A DNA stretch of 64,000 bases from an uncultured delta proteobacterium (lineage in GTDB: Bacteria; Desulfobacterota; Desulfobacteria; Desulfobacterales; B30-G6). How positions within the stretch are numbered: position 1 is the stretch's first letter; every line of letters starts with the position of its first letter. Location: contig CAWGLD010000001.1 of assembly GCA_963823335.1 (NCBI GenBank), positions 1,216,001 through 1,280,000 on the forward strand, in the 5' to 3' direction. The notes beneath the pieces are model-generated. The model was given only the letters and a program-made list of their open reading frames with translations. It made no database searches and was not told the origin of the DNA. Below are positions 1 through 13,183 of the stretch, in pieces. The translations under genes and the position numbers were made by a program.

Positions 1-1
1 G

Positions 2-814
2 AACGGATGCAGATTCTTTGCGGTAATGGTAGGTGTCCAAAAAGAAATATATGATCAGAAGCATACCAGACACCATCAGCATGTGGGGCATGATTTTAAA
101 TGTCCAGAAAAAAGTGACACCATGGAGGTAGCCCAGAAACAAGGGTGGGTCCCCCAGGGGTGTGAGCGACCCGCCCACATTGGCGACCAGGAAGATGAAA
201 AAAACCACCATGAAGGTTCTGTTTTTGCGATAGTTGTTGGCTCTCAGGAACGGACGTATCAAGAGCATGGCGGCCCCTGTGGTTCCCATCCAGGACGCCA
301 GGAGGGTACCGAGAATCAGTATGATGGTATTGACGACCGGTGTCCCCCTCAGGGAACCCCGTAATAAGATACCACCCGAAACCGTATAAAGCGACCAGAG
401 AAGGATGATAAATGGCACATAATCAACCAGGATGATATGCAGGATTTCATAAACGGCCCCGCCCCTGAAAACCCATAAAAAGGGAATGCCCAGAACGGCC
501 GCCCAAAAAGCGGAAATTTTGCCGAAATGATGATGCCAGAAATTTGGCAGGAGTAGGGGCAGCAGGGCGATGGAGAGCAGCATGCATGCAAAAGGGATAC
601 AGCTCCACAGGGGCAGAATTTCTCCAAGGTTGACATGCCCGCTCCCATGTGCCGATGCCTGGGTGGAACCATGTGCTGCAGGATCATCCGTGTTTTCCGG
701 AGCATGCCCGGTACTTGGGGTATCGGATGCGTGGGTTTCGGCAATCATCGGTACCGGCCAGAACAAGAAACACAGCAGGAATAAAAGGACAGCCATTGTT
801 TTTGGAAAACGCAT
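2..814 (-). CDS. IT-superfamily membrane transporter (CitMHS_2-like, usually annotated sodium:proton antiporter); truncated at the window edge
   Basis: Not in the ORF track; translated by hand from ATG at 814 (RBS GGAAAGG): MRFPKTMAVLLF...LASWMGTTGAAMLLIRPFLRAN...FFIFLVANVGGSLTPLGDPPLFLGY; open to the window edge. Confidence 0.85.
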   Translation of the reverse strand, partial: MRFPKTMAVLLFLLCFLFWPVPMIAETHASDTPSTGHAPENTDDPAAHGSTQASAHGSGHVNLGEILPLWSCIPFACMLLSIALLPLLLPNFWHHHFGKISAFWAAVLGIPFLWVFRGGAVYEILHIILVDYVPFIILLWSLYTVSGGILLRGSLRGTPVVNTIILILGTLLASWMGTTGAAMLLIRPFLRANNYRKNRTFMVVFFIFLVANVGGSLTPLGDPPLFLGYLHGVTFFWTFKIMPHMLMVSGMLLIIYFFLDTYHYRKESASV

Positions 815-1108
815 TTACAAGCACCTTTCCTTATAGTATCTTTTCATCGTTATCATTTTCATCGTCGTCATATAGATGCATAGAGTTTCGATTCTAAGGC
901 ATACCGGCTGTGCAACAGCGCCATCATCATTCTATCGTGGCGGAGGTAAGATAGTGAAAGCACATCCTATACCAAGTTTCAATATAATTCAACGCATGAT
1001 CCATAAACCAAAAAAAATAATTATTGCATTTTCAGATGGGTATGCTATCGAAGAAAACCTGCGTTTCCAATCCCGAAGCATCTGTTTCCTTACATGCTGG
1101 GGGGTTGC

Positions 1109-1342
1109 GTGAACCTCGATTACAAAAAGCATCGTGCATGGGCGGAAAATCTTTCCATTGTCATGCAGATAGGACTGACCATGGCAGGATGTGTTGGTTT
1201 TTGTTTTTTTATCGGTCTCACTCTTGACCGGTGGCTCGGCATTCGAGGACTTTTTACGGTGATTTTTATTCTTTTGGGGATTGCAGGCGGGGCCAATGTC
1301 GTCTATCGTCAGGTTATGGAGATCATCGAGCCAAAAAAGTAA
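1109..1342 (+). CDS. atpZ: AtpZ/AtpQ-family small membrane protein
   Basis: Two hydrophobic segments with GLTLDRWLG...ILLGIAGG; first gene of the atp cluster; GTG at 1109 preferred (ORF track starts at 1094). Confidence 0.8.
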   Translation: MNLDYKKHRAWAENLSIVMQIGLTMAGCVGFCFFIGLTLDRWLGIRGLFTVIFILLGIAGGANVVYRQVMEIIEPKK

Positions 1343-1361
1343 AGTGTCATGTTAGGGAAGA

Positions 1362-1748
1362 ATGGAAGCTATTCACCATACACAGAAAAAATTTGGATCC
1401 AGGGCCATGGTCATGGCTGTTATCGCCGGTATGATTTTTATCCTGGTGGGTCAAAAGTCGATTGCCAAAGGCTTGGTGCTCGGTTCTGTTTTCAGTGTCA
1501 TCAATTTTGTTCTGATCGGTGAAATTATGCCGATGATCATCACGGCATCCCGTAAGAGATCTGTTCTGTTCTCCTTTGCTTCGATGCTGTTTCGATTTCT
1601 GTTGTTATCGGCGCCCCTTCTTTTGTCGCTGAAAATGGAAAGCCTGAATTTTGCTGCTGCCACCGTCGGAATCTTTATGGTGCAGATCGTGATCATGGGA
1701 AGCCATCTTCTAAGGTTAATTTACCCCGAAGGGATGCAAGGGACGTAA
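1362..1748 (+). CDS. atpI: ATP synthase protein I (c-ring assembly factor)
   Basis: 128 aa, about 4 TM helices, GLVLGSVFSVINF motif; lies between atpZ and atpB. Confidence 0.8.
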   Translation: MEAIHHTQKKFGSRAMVMAVIAGMIFILVGQKSIAKGLVLGSVFSVINFVLIGEIMPMIITASRKRSVLFSFASMLFRFLLLSAPLLLSLKMESLNFAAATVGIFMVQIVIMGSHLLRLIYPEGMQGT

Positions 1749-1760
1749 CATAGGACTGTT

Positions 1761-2435
1761 ATGGGAGAACTGGGTAGAATACATCAGCTGATCATTCCGT
1801 TTTACGGACATGACATCACGTTGAATCTGGAAGTCATCCTCATGACGTGGATTGTTTTCTTTCTGTTGATCCTTGTGGGCTTTTTGTCCTCACGCAAGAG
1901 AGCCGTCTACCCCAAGGCCATGCAGGTCTTTGGAGAAATTTTTATCACCCAATTTTATCAGATCACCGAGGATGCGCTGGACAAGAAGATGGCAAAAACA
2001 TATGGTCCTATGATTTGTGCGCTTTTCATGTTTCTTGTGCTGGCAAACTGGCTCGGTATTATTCCCTATCTGGAGGAACCCACAAAGGATCTGAACACAC
2101 CCCTCAGCCTGGGTCTCATGGGGTTTGTGATTGCCCATGTGGCCGGTATTAAATCGAAGGGTTTTAAAGCATATGCCAGGGAATATTTTGAACCGATGTT
2201 TTTTATGATGCCGCTGAATGTCATTGGCGAGTTGGCCAAAATAGTTTCCATATCCTTTAGGCTTTTTGGAAACATCATGGGAGGATCGATCATTATCCTG
2301 GTGGTCTCTTACCTCACATACAGCGTACTCCTGCCGCCTCTGCTCAACGCATTTTTCGGTCTTTTTGTGGGGACGATACAGGCCTTTGTTTTTACCATGC
2401 TGACGGTTGTTTATATTTCGGTCCAGGTAAAGTAG
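1761..2435 (+). CDS. atpB: Fo ATP synthase subunit a
   Basis: PTKDLN, conserved Arg in SISFRLFGNI, and IQAFVFTMLT. Confidence 0.97.
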   Translation: MGELGRIHQLIIPFYGHDITLNLEVILMTWIVFFLLILVGFLSSRKRAVYPKAMQVFGEIFITQFYQITEDALDKKMAKTYGPMICALFMFLVLANWLGIIPYLEEPTKDLNTPLSLGLMGFVIAHVAGIKSKGFKAYAREYFEPMFFMMPLNVIGELAKIVSISFRLFGNIMGGSIIILVVSYLTYSVLLPPLLNAFFGLFVGTIQAFVFTMLTVVYISVQVK

Positions 2436-2438
2436 AAC

Positions 2439-3413
2439 ATGATTATGGATGTCCATACAGTTGTAACCCTTTCCGCATTCACCGGTGCCGGTGTCGCCAT
2501 GGGGCTGGGTGCCATCGGTGCCGCCATCGGAGAGGGCTATACCGCCGGTGTAGCGAATACCGCCATTTCCAGGAACCCGGAGATCTCCGGTGACATTTTC
2601 AAAAATATGCTGGTGGGACAGGCGGTTGCAGAATCTGCATCTATTTTTGCTCTGGTAATTGCGGTGCTGATGCTTTTTCTGGATGTTCCGACGGACAACC
2701 TGCTGAAGGGAGCGGCCCTTTTTGGCGCAGGACTTTGTATGGGGTTTGGTGCGGTGGGTTCGGGTGTGGGTTCTGGATTTCCAGGCGGACAGGCGTGTCT
2801 GGGTATTTCGCGTCAACCGGCCGCTGCATCCCGTTTGACCACCGGTATGTTGATCGGCTCCGCAGTATGCCAGACACCCGCCATTTTTTCCATGGTTATC
2901 GCATTGATGCTGATCTTTATGGATTTCAGCCACCTGCCGCTTGCCCCGACGTGGGCAGCTATTTTAGGTGCGGGACTGAGTACCGGTCTTGCAGCGATTG
3001 GTTCCGGTTATGGCGGTGGACTGGCGGCCGGTGCCAGCTGTGAAGGAATTTCCAGACAACCTGAATCGGTGGGCAATGTAACCACCGTAATGCTGGTGGG
3101 ACAAGCCGTCGCGCAAACACCATCCATTTTCGGATTGCTGGTCAGTTTTATTCTTATCTTCAAATCGTTTCCTGAATCATACACGTTGCAGGCATCCATG
3201 GCTCTGTTATCTGCAGGTGTCTGTATGGGATTCGGTGGTATCGGACCGGGTATCGGCAACGGTATGGCTGCTGAAGGAGCGGTACGGTGGGTCGCCCGTA
3301 ATGTGGAGAATGCCGGTGAACTCATGCGGATCATGCTGGTGGGACAGGCGGTCTCACAGTCGACAGCTATCTATGCCATGGTAGTGTCGCTGGTGTTGAT
3401 ATTTGTCGTGTAG
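2439..3413 (+). CDS. atpE: Fo subunit c with four tandem hairpins (324 aa)
   Basis: Four repeats of a Gly-rich helix, an R(N/Q)P-type loop and ML(V/I)G(Q/S)AVx(E/Q); only repeat 1 keeps the carboxylate. Confidence 0.92.
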   Translation: MIMDVHTVVTLSAFTGAGVAMGLGAIGAAIGEGYTAGVANTAISRNPEISGDIFKNMLVGQAVAESASIFALVIAVLMLFLDVPTDNLLKGAALFGAGLCMGFGAVGSGVGSGFPGGQACLGISRQPAAASRLTTGMLIGSAVCQTPAIFSMVIALMLIFMDFSHLPLAPTWAAILGAGLSTGLAAIGSGYGGGLAAGASCEGISRQPESVGNVTTVMLVGQAVAQTPSIFGLLVSFILIFKSFPESYTLQASMALLSAGVCMGFGGIGPGIGNGMAAEGAVRWVARNVENAGELMRIMLVGQAVSQSTAIYAMVVSLVLIFVV

Positions 3414-3504
3414 TTTTATTTATAGAATAATAGATGAAGTTTAATTAGCGGCGCAGCCGCGACACATAAAATCGTGTAACGATTTTATTAAGGAGGAACG
3501 ACAA

Positions 3505-3753
3505 ATGGCTATTGAAGGTGTTGATATTGTAAAAGCCGCGGCTTTTTTAGGCGCAGGTATCTCCATGGGTCTCGGTGCCATCGGCCCGGGCGTGGGTGAG
3601 GGAATGGTGGCTGCCAAGGCATGTGAAGCCATCGGCAAGAATCCGCGCGAGGCAGGACTGCTGACCCGGACCATGCTGGTGGGACAGGCCGTATCTGAGT
3701 CCACCGGTATCTATTCCCTGGTCATAGCGTTGCTGCTGTTGTTTGTGGTGTAG
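3505..3753 (+). CDS. atpE: Fo subunit c, single hairpin, Na+-binding signature
   Basis: P28, E32, V63, E65, S66, T67, Y70 (GPGVGEG...QAVSESTGIY); strong RBS TAAGGAGG. Confidence 0.97.
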   Translation: MAIEGVDIVKAAAFLGAGISMGLGAIGPGVGEGMVAAKACEAIGKNPREAGLLTRTMLVGQAVSESTGIYSLVIALLLLFVV

Positions 3754-3760
3754 TCCACCT

Positions 3761-4216
3761 ATGCAGATTATAAGTAACATAGCGCTCATCAGCATCAACG
3801 AGACCCTGGTGATCCAGTTGATCTCTTTTTTAATCTTTCTTTTCATTATCAACCGGATCATGATTCGGCCGCTACGGGCAACCATGGCGGAAAGGGATAA
3901 CCATATTCAAATGGTCCGGGAGGACATTCTCGATTCGAAGAAGGAACTCGAGGAGATCGTGGATGAATCAAACCAGGAGGAAAAAGAGATACGGCAGGCG
4001 GCCCTCCAGATCGTGGCCGAGATGGAAGGCCTTGGGCAGCATGAAGCCCACGACATCATTGGCGTGGCAAGGAAAGAAATTGCTGTCGTGAAAAAGCAAA
4101 CACAGGCTGAAATTGAGCGCCTTCTTGCCGAGGCCATGACATCCGTACAAAAAGAGGCTGAGATCCTTTCGGTTTCCGTCATGGAAAAGATCCTGGGTAG
4201 GAAGGTGTCACCATGA
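3761..4216 (+). CDS. atpF: Fo subunit b'
   Basis: INETLVIQLISFLIFLFIINRIMIRPL followed by a charged coiled coil; ATG at 3761. Confidence 0.88.
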   Translation: MQIISNIALISINETLVIQLISFLIFLFIINRIMIRPLRATMAERDNHIQMVREDILDSKKELEEIVDESNQEEKEIRQAALQIVAEMEGLGQHEAHDIIGVARKEIAVVKKQTQAEIERLLAEAMTSVQKEAEILSVSVMEKILGRKVSP

Positions 4217-4809
4217 CACCAATGGTTTTTAAAAACTGGAAAAGCATTGCCTGGTGGATGTTTTTTATGGTTATGGTGGTGACAACCACAGAGGCCCTGG
4301 GTGCGGAAGCGGCGGTTAACTGGCGCCCGACTTATGACAGTGTGATGCGCTGGCTCAACTTTGGGATACTGATCGTGCTCTTTTTCAGGTATGCCCGCAA
4401 ACCGTTGGTAACCTTTTTAAACGGGAAATCCAGGCAGATCGAAGAAAACATCAAAAGTGTCGAAGCGGAAAAAGAGGCCATCAGGATACGTATCGATGAA
4501 CTGCAAAGGGAACGAGAAGAAGGCCGCCAACAACTGCACCAGATTCGGGACAGAGTCATTTCCCAGGGAAAGCTGAAAAAGCAGAAAATCATCGATGACG
4601 CCAAAAAAGAGAGTCATCTGTTATTGGAAAGTGCCAAACAGAAAATAGAGCATGAAATAACATCTGCACGAAAGAAGCTGCAAGCTGAAATAGTTGATCA
4701 GTCCATTGACCTGGCCATGCAAAAACTCCCCCAAATGATGACCGATCAGGATACCCAAAACAGCCTGAAAATGTATCTTGAAGGGATTCATTCCCTGACC
4801 AAATCCTGA
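4213..4809 (+). CDS. atpF: Fo subunit b with N-terminal extension
   Basis: RWLNFGILIVLFFRYARKPL followed by a coiled coil; ATGA overlap with b'. Confidence 0.88.
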   Translation: MTPMVFKNWKSIAWWMFFMVMVVTTTEALGAEAAVNWRPTYDSVMRWLNFGILIVLFFRYARKPLVTFLNGKSRQIEENIKSVEAEKEAIRIRIDELQREREEGRQQLHQIRDRVISQGKLKKQKIIDDAKKESHLLLESAKQKIEHEITSARKKLQAEIVDQSIDLAMQKLPQMMTDQDTQNSLKMYLEGIHSLTKS

Positions 4810-5109
4810 CCGTCCCTATTTATGGTTAATTAAGATACTATACGCCGGCAAGTAGCATCTATCAAAATTATATTTCCAAACTGCCTCTCATATCACAGTT
4901 TTTGGATCAGGATAATATTTTCATCTTCTGGTGGGCTATTTCAGAATTCATAAAAGTGAAAACGTTTTCCGTGATTGTGACTTCGGATATCCCCGGGTTG
5001 ATGCCATTTCAGAAGCTTTGCCCTTTTCATTCGATTGTGCTATGTAAAATCAATTCATAACGTAGGTTTATACTCCCTCACCCGAATCTTTTTTTAGTAA
5101 GGAGCCGAC

Positions 5110-5658
5110 ATGAATAAAACTCAAGTGAAAGAGATAATGATTCCGATCTTGAACTACGTGACAGTTAAAAAAGAAAATACCCTGGTTGAGGTTTTACAGT
5201 CTTTGGAACAGGCCCGGAAGTCAGAGAACGAACATGCCCATAGAGACGCAATCGTGGTTGATGCAAACGGTGTTTTTGTAGGCAAAGTTACCATGATCGA
5301 TGTTTTTTGGGCCCTGGAGCCTAATTATTCAAAGGTTGAACAGCAACAGGAACAGGGCGTACTGACTGCCGATTTTGTCATGAAAGCCGCCAAAGATTTT
5401 AATTTATGGATTGAACCCACGCAAACCATTTGCGAGCGAGGGAGCCGCTTAACGGTTTCCGATGTAATGCATACGCCGGAAAAGATGGAATATATCGAAG
5501 AAACAGCCACCATTGATAACGCATTGCATTTATATGTTCTGGGCATCCATCAGCCACTTATCGTGAACAATAAGGACGCGAAGGTTACAGGCGTTTTACG
5601 GTTTGGTGATGTATTTGAAGTCGTCAGACAACGTTTGTTGAACTGCAGTGTTTCTTAA
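5110..5658 (+). CDS. CBS domain protein
   Basis: VKEIMIP...IVVDANGVFVGKVTMID and VSDVMHTP...VTGVLRFGD form a CBS pair. Confidence 0.85.
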   Translation: MNKTQVKEIMIPILNYVTVKKENTLVEVLQSLEQARKSENEHAHRDAIVVDANGVFVGKVTMIDVFWALEPNYSKVEQQQEQGVLTADFVMKAAKDFNLWIEPTQTICERGSRLTVSDVMHTPEKMEYIEETATIDNALHLYVLGIHQPLIVNNKDAKVTGVLRFGDVFEVVRQRLLNCSVS

Positions 5659-5715
5659 ATTTTCGACATGACTTCTAAAATAAAAGTTAAGGAATAACGT
5701 ATAGATATAACGCCA

Positions 5716-7557
5716 ATGAATTTTCCCCCACCACCCAATACCCATGCCATGGCCGTGCTGATCCTTACCATTGTTGCACTGGTCCTGTTTACCCGTGAAA
5801 AGATACCCCTAGAATCCTCCAGTTTCCTGGTGCTCATCGGTCTGGCCGTTGGGTTCGAAGTCTTTCCGTTCCAGGCGAACGGAGGCGTTTTACACGCCGT
5901 GGACTTTTTCCGGGGTTTCGGACACGAGGCGCTGGTTGCCGTCTGCGCTCTGATGATCGCCGGGCAGGGTATCGTCCGCACGGGGGCGCTGGAACCCGTG
6001 GGAAGGGTGCTGACGCGGTTCTGGAAGGTGAGCCCGAGCATCTCCCTGCTGCTGACTCTTATTGTTGGAGCCCTTATCAGTGCGTTTATAAACAATGTTC
6101 CCGTTGTCGTATTGTTTCTCCCTATTTTGATCAACGTTTCCCTGCGCACGGGTATGAAGGCCTCTTCCGTGTTGATGCCCATGGGATTCGCCACCCTGCT
6201 GGGGGGCACGTGCACCACCATCGGAACCTCCACAAATCTGCTGGTGGTCTCCGTGGCAGCAGAGATGGGCTTGAAACGGATGGATATGTTCGATTTCCTG
6301 GTGCCGGCAGCCATTGCCGGAAGCATCGGTATCGCTTATCTCTGGCTCGTGGCGCCTCGGATCATACCGGAGCGTGAACCAACCATGGCAGACACATCTC
6401 CCAGGGTTTTCTCTGCCCATCTTGCCATTCCTGAAGGAAGCCCGATTGAAGGAAAGACGCTGGCCCAAGCCAGAAAAAAAGTAGATGGGGCCATGAAAGT
6501 CACAAGCGTGGAGCGTGGGCTTGACAATTTCATGATACCCTTTCCAACTCTGGTGCTGAAAGCCGGCGACCATCTGATTATCCGTGACACGCCCGATCGC
6601 TTGAAGGAGTTTGAAAAGATACTGGAGGGAACGCTCTATGCAGATGACGCCATGGTCGCACCTGTTGACGATGAGCACCCGTTAAAGGATGAAGATCAGC
6701 AGATCGCGGAGGTCGTCCTCATAGAAGGCTCCCGTCTTGCGGGAAGAACTCTCAGCGGAACCCGATTCGCGGACCGGTACGGGATGATTACCCTGGCCAT
6801 ACACAGGGCCGGCATTCACCCGGAAAAGTTATACGACGAAATCGGGGATATTCGTCTGAAAGCCGGGGATATCCTCCTGGTTCAGGGACCCCGAGAACAG
6901 ATCGCCGGTCTCAAAAAAGAAAAGGATTTTCTCGTGCTGGATGCCACGGCGGATCTGCCTTTTGCCCGTAAGGCACCGTTGGCCCTGCTCATTATGCTGG
7001 GTATCATTGTTTCGGCCGCCGTAGGGTTTCTGCCCATCGCCATCAGCGCATCGCTCGGGGCGCTGTTGATGATTTTCACGGGATGCCTGGGATGGCGTGA
7101 TGCCACCAGCGCACTGAATGCGCAGGTTATCCTTATCGTGACCGCAAGTCTCGCCATCGGGGTTGCAATGCTCAAGACCGGCGGTGCTGATTACCTTGCA
7201 CAACTTTTTGTTGCTCTGGCAGGGGGCACTTCGCCGGTCCTAGTGATCAGCGGGCTGATGCTTCTGATGGGCATCCTCACCAACATCGTTTCCAACAACG
7301 CAGCAGCGGTCATCGGCACCCCCATCGCCGTTTCAATTGCCGCCCAGATGGGACAGCCGGCCGAACCGTTTGTCCTGGCCGTGCTCTTCGGAGCCAATAT
7401 GAGCTATGCCACCCCCATGGCCTACAAAACCAATCTCCTCGTCATGAACGCTGGGAACTACACCTTCAATGATTTTCTTCGAGTTGGGGTACCGCTGGTC
7501 CTGATAATGTGGGTTACGCTTTCCTGGTTGCTTCCGACCCTTTACGGTATAAAATAA
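5716..7557 (+). CDS. SLC13/DASS-family permease with two TrkA-C domains (anion:Na+ symporter)
   Basis: SAFINN, GGTCTTIGTSTNL, TNIVSNNA and YATPMAYKTN motifs; soluble RCK_C region in the middle. Confidence 0.92.
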   Translation: MNFPPPPNTHAMAVLILTIVALVLFTREKIPLESSSFLVLIGLAVGFEVFPFQANGGVLHAVDFFRGFGHEALVAVCALMIAGQGIVRTGALEPVGRVLTRFWKVSPSISLLLTLIVGALISAFINNVPVVVLFLPILINVSLRTGMKASSVLMPMGFATLLGGTCTTIGTSTNLLVVSVAAEMGLKRMDMFDFLVPAAIAGSIGIAYLWLVAPRIIPEREPTMADTSPRVFSAHLAIPEGSPIEGKTLAQARKKVDGAMKVTSVERGLDNFMIPFPTLVLKAGDHLIIRDTPDRLKEFEKILEGTLYADDAMVAPVDDEHPLKDEDQQIAEVVLIEGSRLAGRTLSGTRFADRYGMITLAIHRAGIHPEKLYDEIGDIRLKAGDILLVQGPREQIAGLKKEKDFLVLDATADLPFARKAPLALLIMLGIIVSAAVGFLPIAISASLGALLMIFTGCLGWRDATSALNAQVILIVTASLAIGVAMLKTGGADYLAQLFVALAGGTSPVLVISGLMLLMGILTNIVSNNAAAVIGTPIAVSIAAQMGQPAEPFVLAVLFGANMSYATPMAYKTNLLVMNAGNYTFNDFLRVGVPLVLIMWVTLSWLLPTLYGIK

Positions 7558-7614
7558 CACCCGAAATCGTATCAATTGCATCGATACTATCTAAATTTCA
7601 ACTGCGCGACGATA

Positions 7615-8610
7615 TTAGCCAACAGTTCCAGCGAAGAAACAGGATACCCTATGGCCCTGTTCTATTTCTTTAAAAGGGGGCTCCTGGGTACGACAGACAT
7701 CTTTTACATAGAGGCAGCGCGTGTGAAACCGGCACCCTTTTGGCGGGTCGATGGGGCTGGGGACATCTCCCTTCAGAATGATCCGTTTTTGTTTTATGGT
7801 GGGGTCCGGGGTGGGAGATGCGGATAACAAGGCCTGGGTATAGGGGTGCAGGGGGCGCCGATAGAGTTTTTCACTGTCGGCGAGCTCCACGAGTTTACCC
7901 AGGTACATGACGGCCACCCGGTCGCTGATGTGTTCTACAACACTCAGGTCGTGGGAGATGAACAGGTAGGTCAAGTTGAACTCCTCCTGCAGATCTTGAA
8001 AAAGATTGATGACCTGTGCCTGGATCGAAACGTCCAGCGCTGATACGGCTTCATCACAGATGATAAGCTGGGGGTTGAGAGCCAGCGCCCGCGCAACACC
8101 GATTCGCTGACGTTGCCCACCTGAAAACTGGTGCGGATAGCGTCGCATGTGTTCCCGTTTCAGCCCCACGACTTCCAGAAGTTCCAAAACCCTGGCATCT
8201 CTTTCTCTGCGGTCTCCGACGCCATGAACCAGCAGGGGTTCTCCGATGATATGGGCGACTGTTTTCCTCGGGTTCAATGAAGAGAAAGGGTCCTGAAAGA
8301 CGATCTGCATTTCTCTTCGCAGGCTGCGGACTTGTGCAGGGCTGTATTCGAGAATGTTTTCCTCGTTGAAATAAACAGCGCCGGCCGTGGGTTCTTCCAG
8401 TCGCACAATGGCGCGACCCAGGGTCGATTTTCCGCACCCGGATTCACCTACGAGACCCAGGGTTTCCCCTTTGTTGATGGAGATATCCACACCATCGACC
8501 GCTTTGACGGAGGCAATCTCTTTTAAGAACACGCCGCCAAGAATCGGATAATGTTTTACCAGCCCTTCGGCTCTCAAAAGCGGTTTTATTCCGGAAGCGG
8601 TATCATGCAT
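7615..8610 (-). CDS. dppF: Peptide ABC transporter ATP-binding subunit
   Basis: [32 protein letters not shown]. Confidence 0.93.
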
Positions 8611-9580
8611 ATTTCAGGCACCTCACCGCATGATTTTCCCCCACAGCATATTGCCGGGGGGATATTTTGCGACAGTCGGAAAACACATCCGGGCAGCGGT
8701 CACTGAAGAGGCAGCCCTCCGGCAGGTCAAAAAGAGACGGAACCACACCTGCAATAGTGGAAAGTCGTTTTGATTTTATCTTTTTTCCCAGAACGGGAAT
8801 CGATTCCATGAGGCCGATGGTATACGGGTGTTTTGGGGTCAAGAAAAGGGTTTTGGCACTGGCATACTCCACGATGCGCCCGGCATACATGACGGCTACG
8901 TGTTGTGCCATTTCGGCAATGACCCCCAGGTCATGGGTGATAAAGAGAATGGATGCCCCTGTGTCCTCTTTCAGTTTGTTCATGAGATCGAGAATCTGAG
9001 CCTGAATAGTTACATCCAGCGCTGTCGTCGGTTCATCTGCGATCATCATTTTAGGGTTACAGGCCAGCGCCATGGCAATCATGACCCGTTGCCGCATGCC
9101 ACCACTCATCTGGTGAGGGTATTCATCCAAACGTCGATCCGCAGCCGGGATGCCGACCCGCTGAAACATTTCGACTACCCGTGAGCGGGTTTCTTTTGCC
9201 GATAGCTTTTTGTGCAATCGAATTACCTCTCCCACCTGATCCCCTACGGAGAAAACCGGGTTGAGGGATGTCATGGGTTCTTGAAAAATCATGGAAATCT
9301 GATTGCCCCTGATTTTTCGCATCTGTTTTTCAGAATAGGCGAGCAGATTATTGCCATTGAAAATGATTTGACCACCCACGATTTTGCCGGGGGGATCTGG
9401 AATCAGTTGAATGATGGAATGGGCGGTGACGCTTTTACCGCAACCGGATTCTCCCACAAGACCCAAGGTCTGTCCCGATTCGATGGTCAGACTGACATCG
9501 TCGACAGCTTTTGCCACCTGGCCGCGCACAAAAAAATGGGTTTGTAAATTAACGATGTCTAATAGTGCAGTATCCGGCAT
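8603..9580 (-). CDS. dppD: Peptide ABC transporter ATP-binding subunit
   Basis: [24 protein letters not shown]. Confidence 0.93.
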
Positions 9581-9585
9581 TCGAT

Positions 9586-10494
9586 TTAGTCTCTCAAGCG
9601 AGGGTCAAGTGCATCCCTGAGACCGTCGCCAAAAAGGTTGAATCCAAGAACGGCAAATAAAATGGCGATACCCGGGAAAGTCATTACCCAGGAAGCCCTG
9701 AGAATCAGGGAACGGCTTCGCGCGATCATGGCGCCCCATTCAGGTGTGGGCGGTTGTGCACCGAGCCCTAGAAAACTCAAAGCGGCGGCATCAAGAATCG
9801 CCGATGCAAAGGACAGGGTTGTCTGGACGATGAGGGGACCCAGGCAGTTCGGTAATATTGCCAGGAAAATAATACGAAGATCCCTGGCGCCGATGGAACG
9901 GGCTGCGGTCACATAATCTTTCCCACACTCTTCCAGGACACTTCCCCGGACAATACGTGCAAAACGGGGAACATAGGTGATACCGATGGCCATCATGGCA
10001 TTTTTGAGACTGGGACCTAGATAGGCGACCACGACGATGGCCAGAAGCAGATACGGGAATGCCAGGATAATATCCATGACGCGCATGATGAGGCTGTCCA
10101 GTTTTCCTTTGTAGTAGCCTGCCACGGATCCGAAAAACGTCCCCAGCACAAAGGCCAGACCGACACTGACCATGGAAACCATCAGGGATACCCGCGCACC
10201 GTAAATTAATCTGGAGAGGATGTCCCGGCCCAGATCGTCGGTTCCCAGAATATTTTTTGTGGTTCCCTTGTCGTGCCACATGGGTGGTTTTAGTTGATCA
10301 TACAGGGATGTTTCGTTCGGATCATGGGGGCTCAGCAGGGGAGCAAAAGTGGCTGTTATAAAAAAAAAGGAGACGAGTATCATGCCGGCCACAGCGGTCT
10401 TGTTCCGCCAGAGCTGGGATAACTGGTCGAGAAATGGGTGTCGATCCTGCGGATTTTTTCGTTTCGGGTTGTCAGACATTGTATTACTGGACAC
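9586..10494 (-). CDS. dppC: Peptide ABC transporter permease
   Basis: LGTDDLGRD, LSFLGLGAQPPTPEWG, GDGLRDALDP. Confidence 0.93.
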   Translation of the reverse strand: MSSNTMSDNPKRKNPQDRHPFLDQLSQLWRNKTAVAGMILVSFFFITATFAPLLSPHDPNETSLYDQLKPPMWHDKGTTKNILGTDDLGRDILSRLIYGARVSLMVSMVSVGLAFVLGTFFGSVAGYYKGKLDSLIMRVMDIILAFPYLLLAIVVVAYLGPSLKNAMMAIGITYVPRFARIVRGSVLEECGKDYVTAARSIGARDLRIIFLAILPNCLGPLIVQTTLSFASAILDAAALSFLGLGAQPPTPEWGAMIARSRSLILRASWVMTFPGIAILFAVLGFNLFGDGLRDALDPRLRD

Positions 10495-11488
10495 TTATCC
10501 TCGGGTTAATGATGGCATAGAGAATATCCACACACAGATTGATCAATATGAAAAGGGCTGCAATAAAGAGAGTACCTCCTTGAATGACCATATAATCGCG
10601 TTGCATGACCGCATCGTACATCCATTTTCCGACACCCGGCCAGGCAAAAATGGACTCGGTCAGTATGGCACCTCCAAGGGTGACGCCGAACTGCAGACCG
10701 ATGGTTGTCACCACCGGGATCAAGGCATTTCGAAGACCATGCTTATAGATTACCTTGAACTGTGAAAGCCCTTTTGCTTTGGCGGTTTTGATATAGTCCT
10801 GACGCAACACTTCCAGCATGGCCGAGCGTGTCATTCTGGCGATGATCGCCATGGGAATGGTGCTCAGGGTTACCGCCGGCATGATGAGGTGCCACACGGC
10901 GTCTCTAAAGGCCACCCAGTTGCGGGTCAGCAAGGCATCCAGGGTATAGATGTTCGTGATAACCTGGAGGTCGACATCGATACTCAGACGGGCGGATAAG
11001 GGGAGCCATCCCAGGTTGACGGAAAAAATGAGCATAAAAACAAGACCAAGCCAGAAAATGGGCATACTGACCCCTGTAAGGGCTCCCAGCATACTGACGT
11101 AGTCGAAAATTGAATACTGCTTTGTGGCGGAAATGATGCCCAGGGTTACACCGAACAGACAGGCGATAAAAAGAGCGGTCACAGCCAGTTCCATGGTTGC
11201 CGGAAAGCGCTGCTTGACTTCGATCCAGACCTTTTGACGGGTCCAGATGGTTTCACCCAGATCACCTTTCATCAATCGTTTCAGAAACATGCCGTACTGG
11301 ATATATAACGGCTCATTCAACCCCAGATGCTCACGGATCTGGTACAGTGCTTCGTCTGTGGCCCGTTCTCCCAGCAGCAGTTCGGCTGGATCGCCCGGTG
11401 TCAGGTGAAGCATGAGAAAGACAATGATAGACACCCCTAGCAGGGTGGGTATCAAAATCAGGATGCGTCTGATGGCGTAAGAAAGCAT
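10484..11488 (-). CDS. dppB: Peptide ABC transporter permease
   Basis: MLSYAIRR...PGDPA...SMPIFWLG...RDYMVIQG; start placed at 11488 because the upstream extension is a heptamer repeat. Confidence 0.92.
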   Translation of the reverse strand: MLSYAIRRILILIPTLLGVSIIVFLMLHLTPGDPAELLLGERATDEALYQIREHLGLNEPLYIQYGMFLKRLMKGDLGETIWTRQKVWIEVKQRFPATMELAVTALFIACLFGVTLGIISATKQYSIFDYVSMLGALTGVSMPIFWLGLVFMLIFSVNLGWLPLSARLSIDVDLQVITNIYTLDALLTRNWVAFRDAVWHLIMPAVTLSTIPMAIIARMTRSAMLEVLRQDYIKTAKAKGLSQFKVIYKHGLRNALIPVVTTIGLQFGVTLGGAILTESIFAWPGVGKWMYDAVMQRDYMVIQGGTLFIAALFILINLCVDILYAIINPRISVQ

Positions 11489-11561
11489 ATAGCTATAAGC
11501 TGTAAGGGGTAAGCTGTAAGCCATAAGCCGTAAGCAGCTTATCGCTTACAGCTTATGGCTT
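11489..11561. repeat. Heptamer tandem array (RTAAGCN)n folding back as an inverted repeat
   Basis: ATAAGCT GTAAGGG GTAAGCT GTAAGCC ATAAGCC GTAAGCA followed by GCTTATC GCTTACA GCTTATG GCTT. Confidence 0.85.
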
Positions 11562-11569
11562 GGTATCGT

Positions 11570-13183
11570 CTATTTCAAACTGACGTTTTTCATCCGTACG
11601 GATCCTGTGGGATGCAGCTTGAAGTTCTGAACACTTTTCTGAGCCGGCCAGATAACGGTGGAGTGTGCCACGGGAATGACCGGGCATTCATCGAACATCA
11701 GCTGCAGCGCGTCTTGATAGATTTTGATGCGCATGGCCTGATCAACCGTTTGTTTGCCCTTCAGCATCAGGTCGTGATAGGTCTCGTTATGCCACTGGGT
11801 TCTGATGGCGGATGAGGCCAGGCCGTCAAACAGTACGGCCAGGAAGTTGTCCGGATCACCATTGTCGCCGGTCCATCCCAGCTGGAACAGATCCATATCA
11901 TCCGGCTGCTCTCGTTGCCTTTTGAGATAGGTTCCCCAGTCATAGCTGACGATTCTGGCGGTGATGCCCAGTTTTTTCAGGTCGGCTGCCATGGCGACAC
12001 CGATCTTCTGGCCTTCGGGGTTGTAGGGCCGGGGTACCGGCATGGACCACAGGGTAATTTCTCCCAGTCCCTCGCCTTCGGGAAAACCGGCTTTTGCTAA
12101 GTACTCTTTTGCCAGGTCAACATCATAGGCATAGCCCGGAACCGACGTATTGTAACCCCACATGGTCGGGGGAATGGGATTCTTGGCAACCTGCCCCATG
12201 CCCTGATAAATATTGTCCACAATGGCTTGGCGATCGATACCGTGGGCAATGGCCTTGCGCAGATTGACGTTGCTCTTCCAGGGTTCCTTGGTGTGGTTGA
12301 AGGAAAGATACCCGACATTCATGCCCGACTGGGTCGGAAGAATCAGATTGGGGTCCTTGCTCGCCATATCGATATCGGCCGGATTGGGGAACTGGCAGAT
12401 ATGGATGTTTCCGGTTTTCAGTTCCAGAAAGCGGACAGAGTTTTCAGGAATGGATCGGAATACCAGTTTGTCGAGATATGGGCCGCCGGATTTGTCCCAG
12501 TAATCCTTGTTTTTTTCTAGAACGATACGGTCGTCTTTGATCCACTGGGCAAATTTGAACGGGCCTGTTCCCACGGGGTTACGTAAAAATTCCTTGGGAT
12601 TTTTCAAAAAGGCGCTGGGGCTGATGATATCGGCAAAATCCATACCCATGTTTGCCAGAAAAGGAGCTTCCACGCGTTTCAGTTTAAAAACCACGGTGTA
12701 ATCATCCACGGCTTCGATACTGCCGATGGTGTCGTCCATCTCCATGGATACCCAGTATTCAGGTGGGCGTTCCTGGGCGGGGATGTCCAAGCCCTTGCCA
12801 AAGAATTTTACGTTACGCTCTTTCATCATCCGGCCGATGGAAAAGACCACCGCATTGGCATTAAAGGGCGTACCGTCATGAAATTTAACATCTTTCTGCA
12901 GATGAAAGGTATACGTCTTGCCATCGGATGAGATATCCCATGACTTGGCCAGACCGGGCTCCAGAGCCGTGCTCTCATCGGCATAAGCCACCAATGCTTC
13001 GAAGATGTTGTCACAGACCATAAAAGAATTGCCATCTGTTTCATAGGCCGGGTCCAGACCGACGCTGTCCCCGCCGCGTCCAAAGACCAGTGTTTTGCTT
13101 ATGGCGGATCCGGGAACGGCTGCAATTGTAAAAAATAAAATTAAACACAGCGAAAGTAGTTGAACCATTGGTTTATGTTTCAT
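11570..13183 (-). CDS. dppA: Peptide ABC transporter substrate-binding protein (family 5)
   Basis: Signal peptide, EPGLAKSW, VKFHDGTPFNA, PVGTGPF, GWTGDNGDPDNF. Confidence 0.93.
   Translation of the reverse strand: MKHKPMVQLLSLCLILFFTIAAVPGSAISKTLVFGRGGDSVGLDPAYETDGNSFMVCDNIFEALVAYADESTALEPGLAKSWDISSDGKTYTFHLQKDVKFHDGTPFNANAVVFSIGRMMKERNVKFFGKGLDIPAQERPPEYWVSMEMDDTIGSIEAVDDYTVVFKLKRVEAPFLANMGMDFADIISPSAFLKNPKEFLRNPVGTGPFKFAQWIKDDRIVLEKNKDYWDKSGGPYLDKLVFRSIPENSVRFLELKTGNIHICQFPNPADIDMASKDPNLILPTQSGMNVGYLSFNHTKEPWKSNVNLRKAIAHGIDRQAIVDNIYQGMGQVAKNPIPPTMWGYNTSVPGYAYDVDLAKEYLAKAGFPEGEGLGEITLWSMPVPRPYNPEGQKIGVAMAADLKKLGITARIVSYDWGTYLKRQREQPDDMDLFQLGWTGDNGDPDNFLAVLFDGLASSAIRTQWHNETYHDLMLKGKQTVDQAMRIKIYQDALQLMFDECPVIPVAHSTVIWPAQKSVQNFKLHPTGSVRMKNVSLK

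Follow-up and report, generated by a model that had tools for sequence, protein, structure and literature searches.

Relation to described rotary ATPases

The size of the ring normally sets the ion/ATP ratio of rotary ATPases, and the single inert position in the ring of Acetobacterium woodii is, to our knowledge, the only F-type exception. In that organism, we take the gene of subunit c1 to lie directly after atpB and to be followed by the gene of a one-hairpin Na+ c subunit; in its ring, the Gln site is reportedly free of ion. Here, we describe an operon in a 64,000-nucleotide stretch of DNA from an uncultured delta proteobacterium of the order Desulfobacterales (assembly GCA_963823335.1, contig CAWGLD010000001.1, positions 1,216,001 to 1,280,000 of the forward strand; the whole stretch is called the window below), in which a gene for a four-hairpin c subunit, the large c, lies after the subunit a gene and before the gene for a one-hairpin Na+-type c subunit, the small c. 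Judged by its residues, the large c appears to represent a new form, and a widespread one, of the hybrid rotor known from A. woodii, encoded in an Fo-only operon that would borrow the F1 of the cell. We consider it fairly probable that the operon encodes an alternative Na+-type Fo that works on a shared F1, has a hybrid ring in which each large c accounts for three inert positions and likely acts as an ATP-driven Na+ exporter.

The best solved match of the large c by sequence is A. woodii c1 (4bem_J, E 1.6e-24), which is also its best match in fold; the two proteins share the Glu and Phe70 of the first hairpin and the Gln and [ST]-T-x-x-Tyr of the last one. However, A. woodii c1 has two hairpins and one inert position, whereas the large c has four hairpins and its relatives three to six, with two to five consecutive inert positions, and the middle Q-T-P motif of the large c is absent from c1. 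Moreover, the sites described here contain two carboxylates (E32 and E65), as in Fusobacterium nucleatum, where A. woodii has Q32, and the operon is devoid of F1 genes, unlike that of A. woodii. According to the accessible text of PMC9171764, the A. woodii ring consists of nine small subunits and one c1, 11 hairpins in all, and the part of PMC3692424 available to us describes the solved Na+ rings of 11 hairpins, the c11 rings of F. nucleatum and Ilyobacter tartaricus. The structures of these rings (1YCE for I. tartaricus, 3ZK1 for F. nucleatum) match the small c at E 2e-18 and 4e-18, respectively, with the same ligands, and E32 of the small c is shared with F. nucleatum. Both c11 rings contain a single type of subunit, and each of their hairpins has its own site.

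The proteolipids of V- and A-type ATPases (NtpK of E. hirae; the eukaryotic c, c' and c''; the multi-hairpin archaeal c) likewise have fewer carboxylates than hairpins and a lower ion/ATP ratio. In the V-type c, however, the site lies inside the subunit and the Glu is in the last hairpin, whereas the large c has its Glu in the first hairpin and its sites would lie across subunit borders; the inert positions are consecutive in the large c and alternating in the V-type proteins. The V-type K models scored below their cut-offs (NF011483, 91.4 bits vs. 188; NF004913, 90.3 bits vs. 211). Like an N-ATPase, the operon adds a second rotary module of the Na+ type to the main ATP synthase of marine and halotolerant bacteria, but the N-ATPases have their own alpha, beta, gamma and epsilon subunits and a different gene order (beta-epsilon ... 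a-c-b-alpha-gamma). With the N-ATPase c model TIGR03322 (cut-off 130.85), the small c obtained 65.1 bits and the large c 152.2 bits, the latter only as the sum of four stretches.

A full ectopic duplicate of Fo without F1 genes was described in Desulfococcus oleovorans by Koumandou and Kossida (2014), and the accessible sections of that paper (PMC4154653) state that its extra a and c subunits group apart from the delta-proteobacterial ones and suggest horizontal transfer. This extra Fo is F1-less like the window operon and comes from the same group; a multi-hairpin c, the ion specificity and a shared F1 are not mentioned in those sections. In the full texts searched, a set that leaves subscription journals mostly outside, no F-type c with more than two hairpins and no Na+ Fo in sulfate reducers were found.

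The two c subunits

The large c (2439..3413, + strand; 324 amino acids, eight helices) contains four PF00137 stretches (E 8.8e-57; 189.7 bits, cut-off 24) and obtained 144.6 bits against TIGR01260, for which the cut-off is 43.95. The small c (3505..3753, + strand; 82 amino acids) contains one PF00137 stretch (E 1.3e-18; 67.4 bits) and obtained 55.7 bits against TIGR01260. The publicly annotated name of the large c is merely 'ATP synthase F0 subunit C'. A first-pass annotation of the window had already pointed to two c genes and to a complete Na+ site in the small c, and both were found again with the list of open reading frames (ORFs), the Pfam search and the alignment.

Written as residue 32 / residues 63-70, the small c reads E/VSESTGIY and contains the full set E32, V63, E65, S66, T67 and Y70. 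It aligns residue for residue with the Na+ c subunits of I. tartaricus and F. nucleatum, among solved structures it comes nearest to the Na+ rings 4bem, 1yce and 3zk1, and its Na+ motif is invariant or almost so in 44 aligned homologues. A rule given in the available part of a preprint (10.64898/2026.10.01.756066) assigns Na+ binding to c subunits with E or Q at position 32 plus E[STQ][STQ]xxY in helix 2; the small c carries both features and is predicted from its sequence to be of the Na+ type.

Each hairpin of the large c was aligned to the small c. The four hairpins, all on the + strand and with approximate boundaries, read E/VAESASIF (H1, about 2439-2684), S/VCQTPAIF (H2, about 2685-2924), G/VAQTPSIF (H3, about 2925-3167) and N/VSQSTAIY (H4, about 3168-3410). 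These readings are identical to those of the earlier annotation. The carboxylate in the middle of the outer helix is present in H1 and in the small c and is replaced by Gln in H2, H3 and H4. By translation and alignment, E65 of H1 (2631..2633, + strand) is the only ion-carrying carboxylate in the large c, and its equivalents in the translated H2, H3 and H4 are Q145 (2871-2873), Q226 (3114-3116) and Q307 (3357-3359), respectively, on the same strand. H1 retains V63 and S66 and loses just T67, replaced by Ala, and Y70, replaced by Phe. H4 has no carboxylate and keeps its S-T-x-x-Y half-site intact (Q307-S308-T309-A310-I311-Y312; 3357..3374, + strand).

The AlphaFold2 model of the large c, based on a 48-sequence alignment, consists of eight long helices, with a mean predicted local distance difference test (pLDDT) value of 95.4 and a predicted template modelling (pTM) score of 0.91. 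The top Foldseek match of this model was 4bem_J, with a template modelling (TM) score of 0.78 on the target and a root-mean-square deviation of 1.6 Å over 156 columns, followed by V-type proteolipids with TM scores of about 0.8 on the target. Solved chains cover at most about half of the model (TM score on the query <= 0.44). In the sequence, R-N/Q-P is kept in the cytoplasmic loops of H1-H3, a motif that presumably makes the contact to gamma and epsilon.

Conservation of the hairpin pattern

Of 8000 candidates scored in a word-indexed protein search, 2348 proteins reached E <= 0.001, and the best 120 of these were analysed. In addition, a scan of one genome per species detected a relative in 212 species; the best 80 loci were kept, which biases the set to close relatives, and residues were counted in the 79 four-hairpin homologues from these loci. 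In H1, E65 and F70 were present in all 79 homologues and S66 and A67 in 78. Q65 and T66 were invariant in both H2 and H3, followed by P67 in 79/79 and 77/79 homologues, respectively. The last hairpin contained N32 in every homologue and Q65, S66, T67 and Y70 in 78/79, the remaining one being cut by the end of its contig. The best 120 proteins of the database search comprise 49 with four, 55 with five and 16 with six hairpins; the same pattern was found in the four- and five-hairpin proteins and, with exceptions, in the six-hairpin ones. The first, penultimate and last hairpins of the five- and six-hairpin proteins are as in the four-hairpin ones, and their extra hairpins are H2-like, with Q-T-P. 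In a quick tree of 133 hairpins and 75 columns, separate groups were formed by the first hairpins (support 99), by the last ones (98) and by the penultimate ones (93), and the extra hairpins fell with H2, as copies of the H2 type.

The residue pattern is not due to chance. The conservation expected in the first-pass annotation, with Glu in H1, Gln from H2 onwards and STxxY in the last hairpin, is near-invariant over the four-, five- and six-hairpin homologues, and its view that the pattern was selected rather than decayed agrees with the near-invariance of the substituted positions.

The small c gene lies 3' of the large c gene in all 76 loci in which the DNA continues; the other four loci stop at a contig edge. 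Among these 76 small c subunits, 72 contain E32, E65, S66, T67 and Y70, three have Q32 and one is truncated. The small c is the more conserved of the two, with 86-100% identity to the window copy against 43-97% for the large c. Wherever the contig allows, the order in the 80 loci is atpZ-I-a-large c-small c-b'-b, and homologues of atpZ (on the + strand) and of atpI were each detected in 73 of them.

Three-hairpin relatives keep the same first and last hairpins, and a small c gene also follows the three-hairpin genes of loci L108 and L109 and the five-hairpin genes of L106 and L107. A plain fusion of a four-hairpin c with a small c was considered for L106 and L107 and rejected: the fifth hairpin shares 57% identity with the small c, but its loop resembles the last hairpin of the window large c. 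The preferred interpretation of this hairpin is a last one that would have retained its Glu.

An all-against-all representative search showed a wider diversity of multi-hairpin c subunits, with 2-15 hairpins and partial sites. The proteins numbered P0121-P0270 comprise a four-hairpin group of ~320 amino acids with the reading E, Q, E, E/D and an identity of about 30% to the large c, three-hairpin forms with varied orders of E and Q, and chains of 7, 8, 10, 12 and 15 hairpins with Glu in each hairpin.

How the ion-binding sites would be arranged

In the c11 ring of F. nucleatum, as described in the available part of PMC3692424, E32 and E65 come from one subunit, and the O-gamma of S66 and the O of V63 come from the adjacent one. 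For double-hairpin c subunits, the accessible text of the preprint cited above (10.64898/2026.10.01.756066) requires a Glu in the second hairpin alone and [STQ][STQ]xxY in the first alone; the Glu of hairpin n+1 is therefore served by the S/T/Y half of the hairpin before it, n. A. woodii c1 reads Q/VAETSGIF and then Q/VAQTTGIY; Tyr70 is gone precisely on the hairpin before the Gln hairpin and is retained on the hairpin facing the next subunit. The analysis of covariation within chains, based on 140 distinct multi-hairpin patterns, showed that E/D65 was present in the next hairpin in 55/57 cases when a hairpin had Y70 and in 106/262 when it lacked Y70, and the reverse pairing showed no association in the same patterns (104/149 vs. 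103/170); the sequences, taken from the representative search, are related, and these counts indicate consistency and not independent events. Variants from other families obey the rule as well: in L104 (E, Q, Q-T-T-A-I-Y, E-S-T-G-I-Y) and in L106 and L107 (E, Q, Q, Q-S-T-V-I-Y, E-S-T-G-I-Y), the Glu-bearing last hairpin is preceded by Q-[ST]-T-x-x-Y.

A Na+ site would accordingly be shared in the ring, with V63, S66, T67 and Y70 given by hairpin n and residue 32 and E65 by hairpin n+1. H1 of the large c (E32, E65) would complete a site with the preceding subunit, H4 (S308, T309, Y312) would complete the site of the following subunit, and the H1|H2, H2|H3 and H3|H4 interfaces, with Gln for Glu, would carry no ion. 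For the window large c, we infer complete sites at the borders to the previous subunit (prev|H1) and to the next one (H4|next) and three carboxylate-free inner interfaces. The half-site logic proposed in the earlier annotation, which assigned the acidic half to H1 and the S-T-Y half to H4, is thereby supported by the motif rule, the c1 sequence and the covariation.

The operon and the shared F1

Seven genes, all named by Pfam, lie head to tail in the order atpZ-I-a-c4-c-b'-b at 1094-4809 of the window, on the + strand. Besides the two c subunits, they encode an atpZ-like small membrane protein (1094..1342; PF09527, ATPase_gene1, E 4.6e-15), AtpI (1362..1748; PF03899, E 1.8e-06, 28.8 bits vs. 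a cut-off of 25.1), the 224-amino-acid Fo subunit a (1761..2435; PF00119, E 8.8e-50), in which the FRLFGN stretch with the conserved arginine is present, Fo subunit b' (3743..4216; PF00430, E 1.3e-16) and the 198-amino-acid Fo subunit b (4213..4809; PF00430, E 6.5e-16). The b' ORF is listed from a TTG at 3743; the in-frame ATG at 3761 gives 151 amino acids, the length in most homologues. Neither the ORF list nor Pfam indicated F1 genes within the window operon, and the next genes 3' encode a CBS-domain protein and a CitMHS/TrkA_C permease. The region 1094-4809 is therefore a complete alternative Fo sector and not a whole ATP synthase.

The assembly (4.37 Mb, 11 contigs, 93.9% complete) contains a single alpha/beta pair, and its only F1 locus, b'-b-delta-alpha-gamma-beta-epsilon, is on contig 5. 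A second module on contig 8 comprises atpZ-like, atpI and a genes and a gene for a 93-amino-acid c subunit reading Q32 ... M-I-E-S-L-C-I-Y. The two Fo modules are old paralogues: the window subunits a, b and b' are only 33%, 26% and 27% identical, respectively, to the other copies of the genome (those of b and b' lie beside the F1 genes).

Delta and alpha were encoded in none of the 59 related loci with at least 2 kb after b. In each of the five closed or nearly closed genomes that carry the large c, a single canonical alpha/beta pair stands beside two canonical genes for subunit a; an N-ATPase is also present in one of the five, and single extra PF00006 matches were left aside. In genome G684, a six-hairpin c gene lies in one operon with the order atpZ, a, c6, c, b', b, delta, alpha, and a beta match is located about 2 kb beyond on the same contig; this is the sole matched canonical alpha/beta pair of the genome, which also contains an N-ATPase-like set and two other alpha/beta-like pairs. 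This gene arrangement argues that a multi-hairpin module works with canonical F1 genes. In the window genome, the alternative Fo would mount on the single F1 of the cell (delta, alpha, gamma, beta and epsilon, encoded on another contig), replacing the ordinary a/c module.

Start contexts and expression

The start contexts were compared in the 67 loci that hold the a, large c and small c genes. The large c gene starts at a median of 3 nucleotides (nt) after the stop codon of a (3 nt also in the window), and its Shine-Dalgarno match is at most 4 nt or absent in 63/67 loci. For the small c gene, the match is at least 6 nt in 55/67 loci, and the spacer before it, with a median of 86 nt, is variable. 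The comparison suggests that the large c may be made in step with the single-copy subunit a, at low copy, and the small c in large amounts.

The spacer between the two genes of the window (3414..3504, + strand) contains three predicted RNA hairpins and then AAGGAGG, the ribosome-binding site of the small c. Folding of 3411-3507 yields this set of hairpins at -20.3 kcal/mol (z -3.0), with the ribosome-binding site left free; both the sequence and the length of the spacer differ between strains. The Rfam search detected no known RNA, riboswitch or other, at E up to 1 in positions 1-8000 of the window, and the promoter and terminator scans were at background (9 vs. 7.0 expected and 6 vs. 4.5 expected, respectively). 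Contigs from four estuarine metatranscriptome runs cover the region from atpZ to b, both c genes included, at 95-99% likeness, and give a weak hint that the operon is expressed; these four runs were compared, and the stretch is represented to a smaller extent in the RNA runs X5-X16.

Distribution

The order-wide search (E <= 1e-40) gave matches in 230/401 sampled genomes, in 164/278 high-quality genomes and in 117/174 genera, and no internal stops were reported for the matches that it listed. At the level of the phylum, 26/301 genomes had a match at E <= 1e-60, other orders included. The carriers among the 80 loci include the cultured Desulfosarcina widdelii PP31 (locus L056) and an Olavius symbiont. 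All named carriers belong to Desulfobacterales or Thermodesulfobacteriota, except for the 3082-base contig L038, labelled 'Gammaproteobacteria bacterium'; this label is probably a binning error because the contig is very short. The order is home to the main marine complete-oxidising sulfate reducers, and the module could bear on how these energy-limited organisms handle their Na+ gradients and Na+-coupled sulfate uptake.

Among five genomes of high quality from the order in which the large c is absent, three (G014, G023 and G037) contain a second c gene in an N-ATPase-like operon (loci L099, L100 and L102), composed of a, a c subunit with G-P-A-L-G-E-G ... V-E-S-T-A-I-Y, a long b and alpha.

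Composition of the ring and direction of work

We infer a hybrid ring and, with it, the copy number, the ion ratio and the direction of work. The rotor would be composed of many small c and one or few large c subunits, with the ring size kept and three sites lost per large c. An 11-hairpin ring with one large c would have 8 sites, or about 2.7 Na+ per ATP vs. 3.7, and one with a five- or six-hairpin c would have 7 or 6 sites. If this is true, three to six fused hairpins with one carboxylate would extend the principle of the inert position to about 2-2.7 Na+ per ATP in a ring of this size, which raises the question of a rotor passing a third of a turn without an ion site. By our own arithmetic, a ratio of 2.7 balances near 190 mV at a phosphorylation potential of about 50 kJ/mol. 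On an ATP pool shared with the ordinary Fo-F1, the enzyme with the lower ratio would hydrolyse ATP unless the Na+ force were clearly greater than the H+ force, and ATP-driven Na+ export would therefore be favoured. Such an exporter would hold a sodium-motive force steeper than the proton-motive force, and a long inert arc seems easier to cross when F1 drives the rotor; the synthase mode would be possible if strong primary Na+ pumps were active.

Several observations weigh against the reading as an exporter with a mixed ring on a shared F1. H4 would fit H1 of another large c equally well, and large-c-rich or all-large-c rings are possible. The size of 11 hairpins was assumed from the nearest solved Na+ rings. 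Among the best 120 proteins, three have Glu in the last hairpin, and one of 434 amino acids (P0001) reads as a partial tandem. A second F1 could be located in the missing part of the 93.9%-complete genome, and the contigs that hint at expression come from RNA libraries in which carry-over of DNA is possible. The G684 module, lying with the sole canonical F1 genes of its genome, is as compatible with a main synthase as with a pump, and ATP synthesis by enzymes with fewer sites than hairpins was shown according to the accessible text of PMC9171764. Finally, the distribution gives no support to a pump: redundant Na+ exporters might be expected to exclude each other, and no exclusion between the large c and N-ATPase-type c genes was found in the 401 genomes (N-ATPase-type genes in 39/230 with the large c and 36/171 without it; table of 39, 191, 36 and 135; odds ratio 0.77, p 0.30), which, being related, are not independent.

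The same hybrid ring on the shared F1 might instead serve mainly as a high-gear Na+-driven ATP synthase, an alternative that we regard as rather unlikely. Fewer sites per turn would yield more ATP per Na+, and this would pay at a large sodium-motive force, as in seawater with primary Na+ pumps, and a low phosphorylation potential. In the available part of their paper, Litty and Muller (PMC9171764) report that an enzyme with a V-type c, in which there is one site for every two hairpins, made ATP at 90-150 mV, argue that a constant ring size with lost sites suits energy-limited anaerobes and describe the A. woodii enzyme, with its one inert position, as a synthase. The G684 multi-hairpin c gene within the operon of the sole canonical F1 genes of that genome is in line with a synthase, as is the lack of mutual exclusion between the module and the N-ATPase. 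The inert positions of the known synthases are, however, single or alternating, whereas three to five consecutive ones would take up roughly one third of an 11-hairpin ring, or more, and leave an arc as large as one 120-degree catalytic step without ion-driven torque. Moreover, beside an ordinary Fo-F1, the lower-ratio enzyme would reverse unless the Na+ force clearly exceeded the H+ force.

Two further alternatives concern the large c itself. Its hairpin numbers of 3, 4, 5 and 6 are those expected of rings made from few chains, and the S-T-x-x-Y of H4 is a chemically equal partner for H1 of another large c, so the two c subunits could remain unmixed, the large c forming its own ring (e.g., three copies with 12 hairpins and 3 sites) or a conditional replacement. 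We consider this very unlikely given that the small c gene follows in 76/76 loci and is conserved above the large c, that the start contexts indicate unequal, coupled expression from one transcript, and that A. woodii c1, the only solved relative, occurs in a mixed ring with nine small subunits (PMC9171764, accessible text). The loss of the essential carboxylate from three of the four hairpins might also be taken as the mark of a decaying internal duplication or of an assembly helper outside the working rotor. This explanation is hardly credible: Q-T-P and Q-S-T-x-x-Y are near-invariant across genera at an overall identity of 43-97%, the matches listed order-wide are free of stops, the R-N/Q-P loops of H1-H3 are kept, the confidently predicted fold resembles a ring arc, and the operon already has a dedicated assembly factor, atpI.

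Going beyond the exporter reading, we tentatively suggest, as a possible but not yet probable model, a rotary gearbox of the Desulfobacterales and their relatives in which one F1 head would accept two interchangeable Fo sectors, one with the ordinary ring and one with the Na+ hybrid ring containing two to five consecutive inert hairpins. Two enzymes with different coupling ions and ion/ATP ratios and a common ATP pool would, like a transformer, convert the proton-motive and the sodium-motive force into each other. The ratio would be tuned in evolution by duplication of the inert H2-type hairpin, giving rise to the 3-, 4-, 5- and 6-hairpin forms. An Fo without its own F1 makes the exchange of Fo on a shared F1 directly testable, with D. 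widdelii PP31 as a cultured carrier.

Neighbouring genes

A gene encoding a cytidylate-kinase-like protein of 227 amino acids (PF13189, E 3.3e-40; L050:6290-6973, + strand) is present near the operon in 48/80 loci. It lies downstream on the same strand in 30 of these 48 and starts 1 nt after b in L050; no counterpart was seen among the ORFs of positions 1-12000 of the window. The protein could be a nucleotide-binding accessory or regulator of the alternative Fo. Upstream of the operon, a hybrid response-regulator/PAS/histidine-kinase protein (L045:434-1954, + strand) is encoded in 37/80 loci and a tandem universal stress protein (L049:2872-3759, + strand) in 25/80; both are mostly on the same strand as the operon, which hints at conditional expression of the alternative Fo.

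In the window, a CitMHS_2 anion permease gene (2-814, - strand) is located divergently upstream, as in 17/80 loci. Downstream of the operon are genes for the CBS-domain protein (5110-5658, + strand) and for the CitMHS/2xTrkA_C permease (5716-7557, + strand), which has a sub-threshold DASS match (74 bits vs. 198.6). Clusters for Na+-coupled sulfate uptake by DASS transporters with CBS proteins were described in Desulfosarcina in the accessible part of a 2025 paper (PMC11887813), and in the one supplement file searched no ATP synthase entries occur in the DASS cluster. A link between Na+ export and Na+-coupled uptake would be possible. Further downstream, a run of oligopeptide/dipeptide-type ATP-binding cassette (ABC) transporter genes (7615-13183, - strand) encodes two ATPases, two permeases and a family-5 binding protein, according to the ORF translations. 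Similar ABC transporter genes lie downstream in some of the related loci.

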